In this document: positions 26,856-27,410 of the stretch, in pieces
Position numbering within the stretch: the first letter of the stretch is position 1
Layout of the letters: each line of letters begins with the position of its first letter
Virus genome (UHGV): UHGV-0150885
DNA length: 57,380 nucleotides
Direction: 5' to 3' (one strand)
From: a virus
Position numbers and translations under genes: made by a program
The notes under the pieces: model-generated
Database searches by the model: none
Told to the model about the DNA's origin: nothing
Seen by the model: only the letters and a program-made list of their open reading frames with translations

Positions 26856-27410
26856 ATGGCTAAGGGTAAAGGCTTAAAATTGCCTCACTTCAAGATCCCG
26901 CTCTTTGAGCATACAACCGTTTTCTTTTGCCCGACCCGCGAAATCTTTTATGACTTCTGCGAGCGTGCACATATTCCAATCGAGCCTGATTTCGAACTGG
27001 CTGGCGGCCTGACGTTAACCTGTACTGGTGAGAACGGCGGCAACTTCTATGTTGTAGCTGTATTCGATCATGAGATGGGTACGCTGGTCCATGAAATTGC
27101 TCATGCGACATTCCATTGCCTAAGTGACGTCGGTGTGTTGGCAACTACCAGTCCAGAACATCCGGCGAATGAAACTTACGCCTACATGATCGGGCGCATG
27201 TTTGACACTTTCTTCCCTATCCTGGCTGAATCAAACGAAGCGGAAATTGCAGCACAACAGGCAGCAGAAGTGGTGGAGCAAGCGTTAGAACAGGCGTTAG
27301 AACAGGCAGAACAACCGCAGGAAGAAGAAAAACCCACGAAGAAAGGGAAACGTAAGGCAAAAGCAAAAGAAGCGCTTGTACCGCGCGTTATGAGCTTTAA
27401 ACGAGGCTGA
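26856..27410 (+). CDS. Putative zinc metallopeptidase-like protein (HExxH)
   Basis: 184 aa; LVHEIAHATFH motif with downstream Glu; acidic low-complexity then Lys-rich C-terminus. Confidence 0.6.
   Translation: MAKGKGLKLPHFKIPLFEHTTVFFCPTREIFYDFCERAHIPIEPDFELAGGLTLTCTGENGGNFYVVAVFDHEMGTLVHEIAHATFHCLSDVGVLATTSPEHPANETYAYMIGRMFDTFFPILAESNEAEIAAQQAAEVVEQALEQALEQAEQPQEEEKPTKKGKRKAKAKEALVPRVMSFKRG

Follow-up and report, generated by a model that had tools for sequence, protein, structure and literature searches.

Small zincin-like metallopeptidases are a known kind of phage protein. The zincin-like core is a three-stranded beta-sheet with an N-terminal helix that backs it and a pair of C-terminal helices, and the polyvalent MPTases and the C-terminal domain of ArdC are built in this same way from a sheet, an N-terminal helix, a helix that bears HExxH and one that bears the Glu (Iyer et al. 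2017, PMC5512222). The SprT-like proteins, Wss1 and Spartan (PF10263) are likewise small open zincins with an HExxH motif, and the minigluzincins or mini-zincins (PDB 3e11, Acel_2062) are cellular examples. The direct homologues of the gene considered here belong to the protein family PHROG 1365. They include mEp021 gp49, Orf129/gp70, HkcC and an open reading frame (ORF) of phage P22, and they share the motifs HExxH and NE(T/A)xxY. The family itself is uncharacterised and has no curated domain entry. Here we describe the member encoded at 26856-27410 (+) of UHGV virus genome UHGV-0150885, a stretch of 57,380 nucleotides (nt) which we refer to as the window. Its ORF begins with ATG, encodes 184 amino acids (aa) and ends with the stop codon TGA at 27408-27410. 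With a probability of about 0.55, we read the product as a late zinc metallopeptidase tied to the packaging/head module of the phage and not to the tiny ORFs that follow the gene; in this reading, the binding of metal, the peptidase activity, expression late in infection and the connection with packaging or head assembly are inferred.

Judged by its sequence, the protein belongs to PHROG 1365 and is a homologue of mEp021 gp49. The match to the PHROG 1365 profile, which is annotated "unknown function", has E = 3.9e-26 and aligns residues 7-130 with profile positions 9-123 of 127. With the 184-aa protein as query, neither Pfam nor NCBIfam gave a match at E up to 10, and the mEp021 record labels gp49 a "hypothetical protein". 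By nucleotide matches the window is a mEp021-like (mEpimmI) temperate coliphage: those to the 1.8 kb around the gene were limited to the mEp021-like coliphages MagusPhagus, mEp010, mEp044, mEp021, mEp515, mEp554 and mEp013, at 81-90% identity. The mEpimmI phages have been described as Nus-dependent, non-lambdoid and temperate (PMC11893012).

The initial annotation of this 184-aa ORF had pointed to the sequence LVHEIAHATFH, a downstream Glu, an acidic stretch and a Lys-rich tail, all of which are present as it described them. LVHEIAHATFH occupies residues 77-87. The E106 codon lies at 27171-27173, which places this residue 22 positions after H83, compared with a usual spacing of 19-20 between HExxH and the third-ligand Glu in the family. 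Translated in all six frames (114,756 aa), the whole window contains HExxH at two sites, this one and its own antisense reading, so that the motif is no chance effect of composition. The antisense site at 27105 (-) reads MSHEQFH within an 84-aa ORF (26890-27144, -); it is a by-product of the complementarity of CAT and ATG, with no second motif. Codon comparison with mEp021 and MagusPhagus gave a ratio of nonsynonymous to synonymous substitution rates (dN/dS) of 0.08-0.11 for domain and tail alike, which indicates a real gene that is held by purifying selection over its full length.

In an alignment of 81 members, with 22-61% identity to the query, G51, H79, E80, H83 and E106 are invariant and no others are; P15, T76, G93 and Y110 are kept in at least 90% of the members, and H87 is not conserved. 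The combination of a conserved general-base Glu and exactly three candidate ligands is characteristic of a catalytic zinc site. That homologues keep the motif, a check suggested along with the initial annotation, was borne out by 146 of 149 family representatives with HExxH. The other three are a 70-aa N-terminal fragment, a protein with a divergent (frameshift-like) C-terminus and one with HKxxH.

The model built by AlphaFold2 on the 81-sequence alignment (predicted local distance difference test score 92.8, predicted template modelling score 0.86) contains strands at residues 11-13, 21-25, 51-57 and 63-69. Its helices are a backing helix (28-38), a short helix (44-48), the active-site helix with HExxH (74-91) and the Glu helix (104-130). 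Sheet, backing helix, HExxH helix and Glu helix appear in the canonical order of the core zincin topology. A profile search of the PDB returned metallopeptidases only (myroilysin, the astacins BMP1/tolloid and peptidyl-Lys metalloendopeptidase) at E of ~0.4-1, aligned over a strand and the HExxH helix, and a phmmer search of the protein against PDB sequences gave nothing. Sub-threshold Pfam SprT-like matches were obtained for 19 of the 81 members (best E = 1e-4), and further members showed weak matches to the M50B, DUF4344, M48, M76 and reprolysin models; zinc metallopeptidases are over-represented among the weak matches, by sequence as well as by fold. The five invariant residues, the topology of the model and the weak matches agree with the earlier description of a metallopeptidase-like protein with a gluzincin-like HExxH and Glu. 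They support its placement, at the level of alignment and model, in the zincin superfamily as a protein of gluzincin type ("metallopeptidase-like"). As no structural match is significant on its own and the SprT-like match seen in detail is confined to the motif helix, we file the protein under the zincin superfamily and PHROG 1365 and not under the SprT-like, MPTase-PolyVal/ArdC or M78 families.

The SprT and WLM families named in the initial annotation did not hold: the query has no match to PF10263 at E up to 10, and the SprT-like likeness of the family member P0201, at 11.2 bits against a cut-off of 25.6, covers 17 residues at profile positions 63-79 of 108 only, which form the HExxH helix. 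SprT and Spartan use a third His as a metal ligand, whereas the third invariant residue here is Glu106. No Spartan or Wss1 chain was matched in the PDB sequence search. Polyvalent MPTases and this family both occur in phages that use portal/terminase packaging. Unlike a polyvalent MPTase, this protein stands alone, has no Pfam MPTase-PolyVal match and no sequence match to ArdC in the PDB, and its family is rare on plasmids. As regards ImmA/IrrE/CapP (M78-like), there is no Pfam match and the neighbours of the gene are lysis and terminase genes. The minigluzincins show no detectable sequence relationship to the protein and are cellular, whereas this family is phage-borne.

We consider it quite probable that the gene encodes an active, cytoplasmic, late-expressed Zn-metallopeptidase. 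The protein would be a soluble, stand-alone minimal zincin of gluzincin type in which H79, H83 and E106 hold a Zn ion and E80 activates a water molecule as the base, with the nearly invariant Y110 as a possible stabiliser of the transition state. No membrane segment is evident in the 184-aa protein (maximum 19-aa Kyte-Doolittle mean 0.99), and a secreted or membrane protease was ruled out since there is neither a signal peptide nor a transmembrane segment. If active, the family would represent an unaccounted proteolytic activity in P22-like and mEp021-like infections.

In an exhaustive HMMER search, a profile of the N-terminal 131 residues matched at least 223 clusters (50% identity level) at E <= 1e-3. 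Nearly all listed matches are stand-alone proteins, most of them of ~110-140 aa; among the 150 listed of the 223, 147 are credible, stand-alone and at most 190 aa long. A domain fusion in P0207 (1,240 aa) was ruled out, as this is an FN3-repeat protein with a spurious match, and the match in P0192 (5,449 aa), aligned over query residues 3-24 only, looks spurious as well. Among cultured phages the family is present in ~80 records, from mEp phages (82-84% tblastn identity) and P22-like phages (36-44%). At megablast sensitivity, complete E. coli genomes contain the gene in 19 of 5,426 cases, every time as a "hypothetical protein", and the names returned by a profile search of a 5.8-billion-protein collection were all "hypothetical protein". 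A literature search on hkcC, orf129, MPTase-PolyVal and phage HExxH proteins near terminase found nothing on this family, and the mEpimmI phage paper does not discuss gp49. The gain for annotation is modest: ~220 clusters could be renamed "zincin-like metallopeptidase, PHROG 1365 family".

Two diverged paralogues are found in P22-like phages. The Orf129 type (ST64T Orf-129, phage L Orf129, epsilon34 gp70, ST104 ORF47) is encoded in the stretch from the lysis genes to gene 3, which specifies the small terminase, and the HkcC type (HK620 HkcC) follows the ejection-protein gene 16, near sieA. Phi75, ST160, SE1, UAB_Phi20, ST-87, ST-29 and ST-35 (~41 kb) each carry both, with the Orf129 type at the lysis/terminase junction and the HkcC type beside sieA. 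In P22 itself (NC_002371.2; L014 locus 1465-1842, record ~13849-14226, +) an intact, unannotated ORF of 121-125 aa is flanked by sieA and orf59a. Identical to HK620 HkcC and with every motif of the HExxH...NETYCY set, it is a conserved zincin-like gene that the reference annotation of P22 lacks. The family, whose zinc-protease active site is complete and strictly conserved, also occurs in the well-studied phages P22, HK620, L, ST64T and epsilon34.

The gene lies within two genes of TerS, TerL or portal in 10 of the 14 lineages examined. The remaining four comprise the HkcC type at the end of the ejection-protein genes, one ParB/AAA lineage, whose context is unlike the packaging module, and two uninformative contexts on short or truncated contigs. 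The ParB/AAA lineage was sampled twice (L017 2528-6486, and L018) and encodes two ParB-like proteins, an AAA-ATPase, a 121-aa protein, the zincin and an ATPase, in this order; the ATPase beside the zincin is 'ABC ATP-binding'-like (phrog_886). The terminase and portal families differ among the 10 lineages, so the association amounts to more than a single block of conserved genes. A crude binomial estimate for proximity to terminase or portal (p = 0.15 per lineage), in which shared ancestry is ignored, gives 3e-6. In a P22-portal-type phage (L022 6478-7557), TerS and TerL are followed by the mini-zincin, the portal and then a protein of 359 aa that weakly matches ART-PolyVal. The latter protein, with its weak ADP-ribosyltransferase match, may be a head-packaged effector encoded near the zincin.

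The layout of the locus in the window is given in Table 1. Folding of 26735-26800 gave a free energy of -23.4 kcal/mol (z = -6.9, 0 of 200 shuffles as stable) for the hairpin between the spanin and zincin genes, and mEp021 (TERM_6) and mEp013 (T11) have an annotated terminator at the corresponding position. A simple consensus terminator scan did not call this hairpin. Upstream of the zincin gene, a scan revealed no sigma-70-like promoter, and related phages have Q-type antiterminators upstream of the lysis genes. The lack of a promoter, the terminator-like hairpin and the Q-type antiterminators of the relatives together suggest late read-through expression with the packaging and head genes. 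The gene would then be the first of the packaging/head transcription unit after the lysis cassette, and late antiterminated transcription would have to read through the hairpin at 26738-26787. Elsewhere in the window, two ORFs of 1325 aa (46278, 51612) were considered as a possible duplication, which was ruled out since they are unrelated, with 5% amino-acid identity.

Table 1 Features of the zincin locus in the window. Functional assignments within the zincin-like gene are predictions.
Feature	Position	Strand	Details
Holin	25421-25633		
Lysozyme	25630-26121		
Rz-like spanin	26097-26579		
Hairpin between spanin and zincin genes	26738-26787	+	A-rich 5' flank, U-rich 3' flank; intrinsic/bidirectional terminator-like
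Shine-Dalgarno AGGAG	26842-26846	+	9 nt before ATG of zincin gene, read from sequence
Zincin-like gene	26856-27410	+	184 aa
Zincin-like catalytic domain, residues 1-125	26856-27230	+	AlphaFold2 model; family profile covers residues 1-130
HEIAH motif, residues 79-83	27090-27104	+	Predicted Zn ligands H79 and H83; predicted general base E80
NETYAY segment (family consensus NETFCY)	27168-27185	+	E106 is the predicted third Zn ligand; start of Glu helix
Acidic repeat-like helical linker, residues 126-158, EQALEQALEQAEQPQEEE	27231-27329	+	Indels among close homologues
Basic C-terminal tail, residues 159-184, ending in conserved KEALVPRVMSFKRG	27330-27407	+	Lineage-specific addition
Tiny hydrophobic ORF array	27413-28175	+	8 ORFs, each with its own Shine-Dalgarno
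Small terminase subunit TerS, Sf6 type	28186-28671	+	Pfam Sf6_terminase 2.8e-35
Large terminase TerL	28668-30152		Pfam Terminase_6C
Portal	30210-31604		Pfam Phage_portal_3
MuF-like head protein	31543-32490		Pfam Phage_Mu_F; PHROG 758 'head morphogenesis'

That the function of the protein is linked to the packaging/head module and not to the tiny peptides is a tentative proposal. The substrate would be processed in trans at the packaging stage, the leading guess being a portal- or head-associated protein or a DNA-bound one. In a more specific and rather doubtful form of this proposal, the mini-zincin would be an unrecognised accessory part of tailed-phage packaging or head assembly, a trans-acting protease at the terminase/portal vertex whose target would be portal-associated, head-internal or bound to DNA. 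In the mEpimmI lineage, the conserved basic C-terminal peptide might recruit it there. An accessory role of this kind would explain why the gene tracks non-homologous terminase/portal modules across distant phages, P22-like phages included, and the recurrent position beside TerS, TerL or portal is a concrete place to seek the substrate. Several points weigh against our overall reading. A Foldseek search of the domain model against the PDB gave no significant match (best E = 0.09). The boundary between lysis and terminase genes is a known landing site for accessory genes, and this, together with the shared ancestry of the lineages, makes the binomial value of 3e-6 suggestive only. The idea of a head-maturation protease was rejected as the gene looks accessory and not essential, the intact copy in P22 being unannotated; we know of no proteolytic maturation step in the P22-like phages that carry the family.

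The C-terminal extension distinguishes the protein from most of its relatives. A typical PHROG 1365 member has ~120 aa, and the mEpimmI members add a 60-aa acidic helix and basic tail; an extension of more than 25 residues beyond the Glu helix is found in ~8 of 136 family representatives only. Residues 126-158 contain 10 Asp or Glu and no Lys or Arg, while residues 159-184 contain 11 Lys or Arg and one Asp or Glu. The acidic helix varies in length among close mEpimmI homologues (proteins of 173-194 aa), and the tail is under purifying selection with dN/dS of 0.08-0.10. The 55%-identical homologue P0121 has the same design of acidic helix and basic tail (...KEEYVPRIARYKRG). Extensions of the same design and of independent sequence are found in the distant members P0164 and P0252, and the zincins of L017 and L018 are two distant members with independent extensions of this sort. 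Genes of the mEp013 type have an HNH endonuclease gene within the tail, in place of the last dozen or so residues. The acidic helix and basic tail probably tether or regulate the domain via a partner protein or DNA, and the tail would, in our view, be an appendage for docking or regulation.

The main rival reading is that of a virion-delivered or host-directed effector, co-packaged or active late or early against a host protein, for example a defence factor, as has been proposed for polyvalent-protein MPTases and ArdC. Polyvalent proteins packaged via portal and terminase commonly carry zincin-like MPTases (PMC5512222). One NR record, a 57%-identical protein from a metagenome-assembled genome, bears the name "PolyVal Metallopeptidase superfamily domain", a name that could not be reproduced with Pfam: MPTase-PolyVal is not among the Pfam families listed for the query or any of the 81 members, and the PDB sequence search yielded no ArdC chain. 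Neighbouring genes fit an effector in several phages, as the L022 gene adjoins portal and the weak ART-PolyVal protein, the HkcC-type copy adjoins ejection-protein genes, and a MuF-like head protein is encoded just after portal in the window and in L015. The patchy, accessory distribution with two paralogues in some P22-like phages would also suit such a role, and the basic tail could be a targeting signal. Against this, the domain is essentially always stand-alone and not within a polyvalent protein, and the family is found in no more than 8 of 72,556 plasmid records. The mEp021 record does not label gp49 a virion protein, though the mass spectrometry of mEp021 used bands cut from gels and could have missed a minor virion component. 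Searches of the query and six homologues with the PADLOC-DB defence models, a library of defence and not anti-defence proteins, gave no match save one of E = 0.05, which we took as noise. On balance we consider an effector rather unlikely.

The proximity to terminase might instead reflect a DNA-dependent protease like Wss1 or Spartan, whose tail binds DNA and which strips proteins off concatemers ahead of terminase. The gene adjoins terminase genes or ParB-like and AAA genes, members give the sub-threshold SprT-like matches mentioned above, and the basic tails recall the DNA-binding regions of these enzymes. A net charge of at least +4 in the last 15 residues is found in 18 of 136 representatives, and the mEp lineage has its 11 Lys or Arg in 26 residues. 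Wss1 and Spartan are described as proteases of minigluzincin type regulated by DNA binding (PMC4559962). The detailed SprT-like match is limited to the HExxH helix, however, and most family members have no basic tail. Moreover, the conserved motif LVPRVMSFKRG resembles a specific site for peptide docking more than a general binder of DNA, and mEp013-type genes have another sequence in its place. A Spartan-like function therefore appears improbable.

It is more improbable still that the protein is an inactive zincin-like fold or a non-peptidase, such as a zinc-binding adaptor or another hydrolase. YbeY, a metalloprotease-like fold that acts as an RNase, is a precedent; no activity has been shown for any member of the family, the fold has no close solved relative, and neighbouring genes encode nucleic-acid enzymes. 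The strict invariance of Glu80 together with three ligands is nevertheless a signature of catalysis beyond metal binding alone, and all the weak matches are peptidases.

The tiny ORFs immediately downstream had suggested a further function. The array at 27413-28175 (+) consists of eight packed ORFs of 29, 23, 24, 24, 26, 22, 47 and 27 aa; all have their own Shine-Dalgarno and encode a single hydrophobic segment (grand average of hydropathy 0.7-2.1). Clear paralogues are found among them, namely MNAYDLIWLLVLIVGIGVNIYRLW and MNAYEMLLLVAVVVVIAVDVYRELKE, and most of these ORFs are unannotated in mEp021. As the initial annotation had noted, the zincin stop lies 2 nt from the first tiny ORF: its TGA ends at 27410 and the next ATG is at 27413. 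The GAGG Shine-Dalgarno of that ORF lies inside the last codons of the zincin gene. With this gap and this Shine-Dalgarno, the co-transcription that the annotation proposed is plausible, and so is translational coupling.

Its further and speculative suggestion, one module of peptidase and peptides, was not supported by comparison with related phages. Whereas the zincin gene does not vary, the array has ~5 ORFs in mEp021, ~7 in mEp013 and ~12 in MagusPhagus, and an HNH gene separates the two in mEp013. In the nearest outgroup, that of the 55%-identical P0121 (L015/L016), the layout of lysis genes, zincin, Sf6-type TerS, TerL, portal and MuF is as in the window, and the zincin stop lies 3 nt before the ATG of TerS with no tiny ORFs between them. 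No such array was found in the other homologue contexts examined. An outgroup without the array, the varying array size and the intervening HNH gene argue against a functional module of zincin and array. That the zincin processes, matures or controls these membrane peptides is hardly likely, even with the tight junction kept in mEp021 and MagusPhagus and as a remnant in mEp013, and with zincin and array always adjacent or nearly so in mEpimmI phages, given peptides of 22-47 aa with a single hydrophobic segment and no obvious leader, and a zincin with no membrane anchor. Most simply, the sequences can be read as a junction of zincin and TerS that already existed when the mEpimmI lineage gained the array within it. 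The adjacency looks like a lineage-specific accident of gene order with no shared function, and the array should be treated as an independent insertion and not as the substrate of this protein.

A further insertion, into the 3' end of the zincin gene itself, is found in mEp013 (L019, PP180002.1, region 2917-3922), where what is left of the original gene end, TTAAACGAGGCTGATT, directly precedes the first tiny ORF. The HNH gene found there looks like a homing-endonuclease insertion beside the terminase region.

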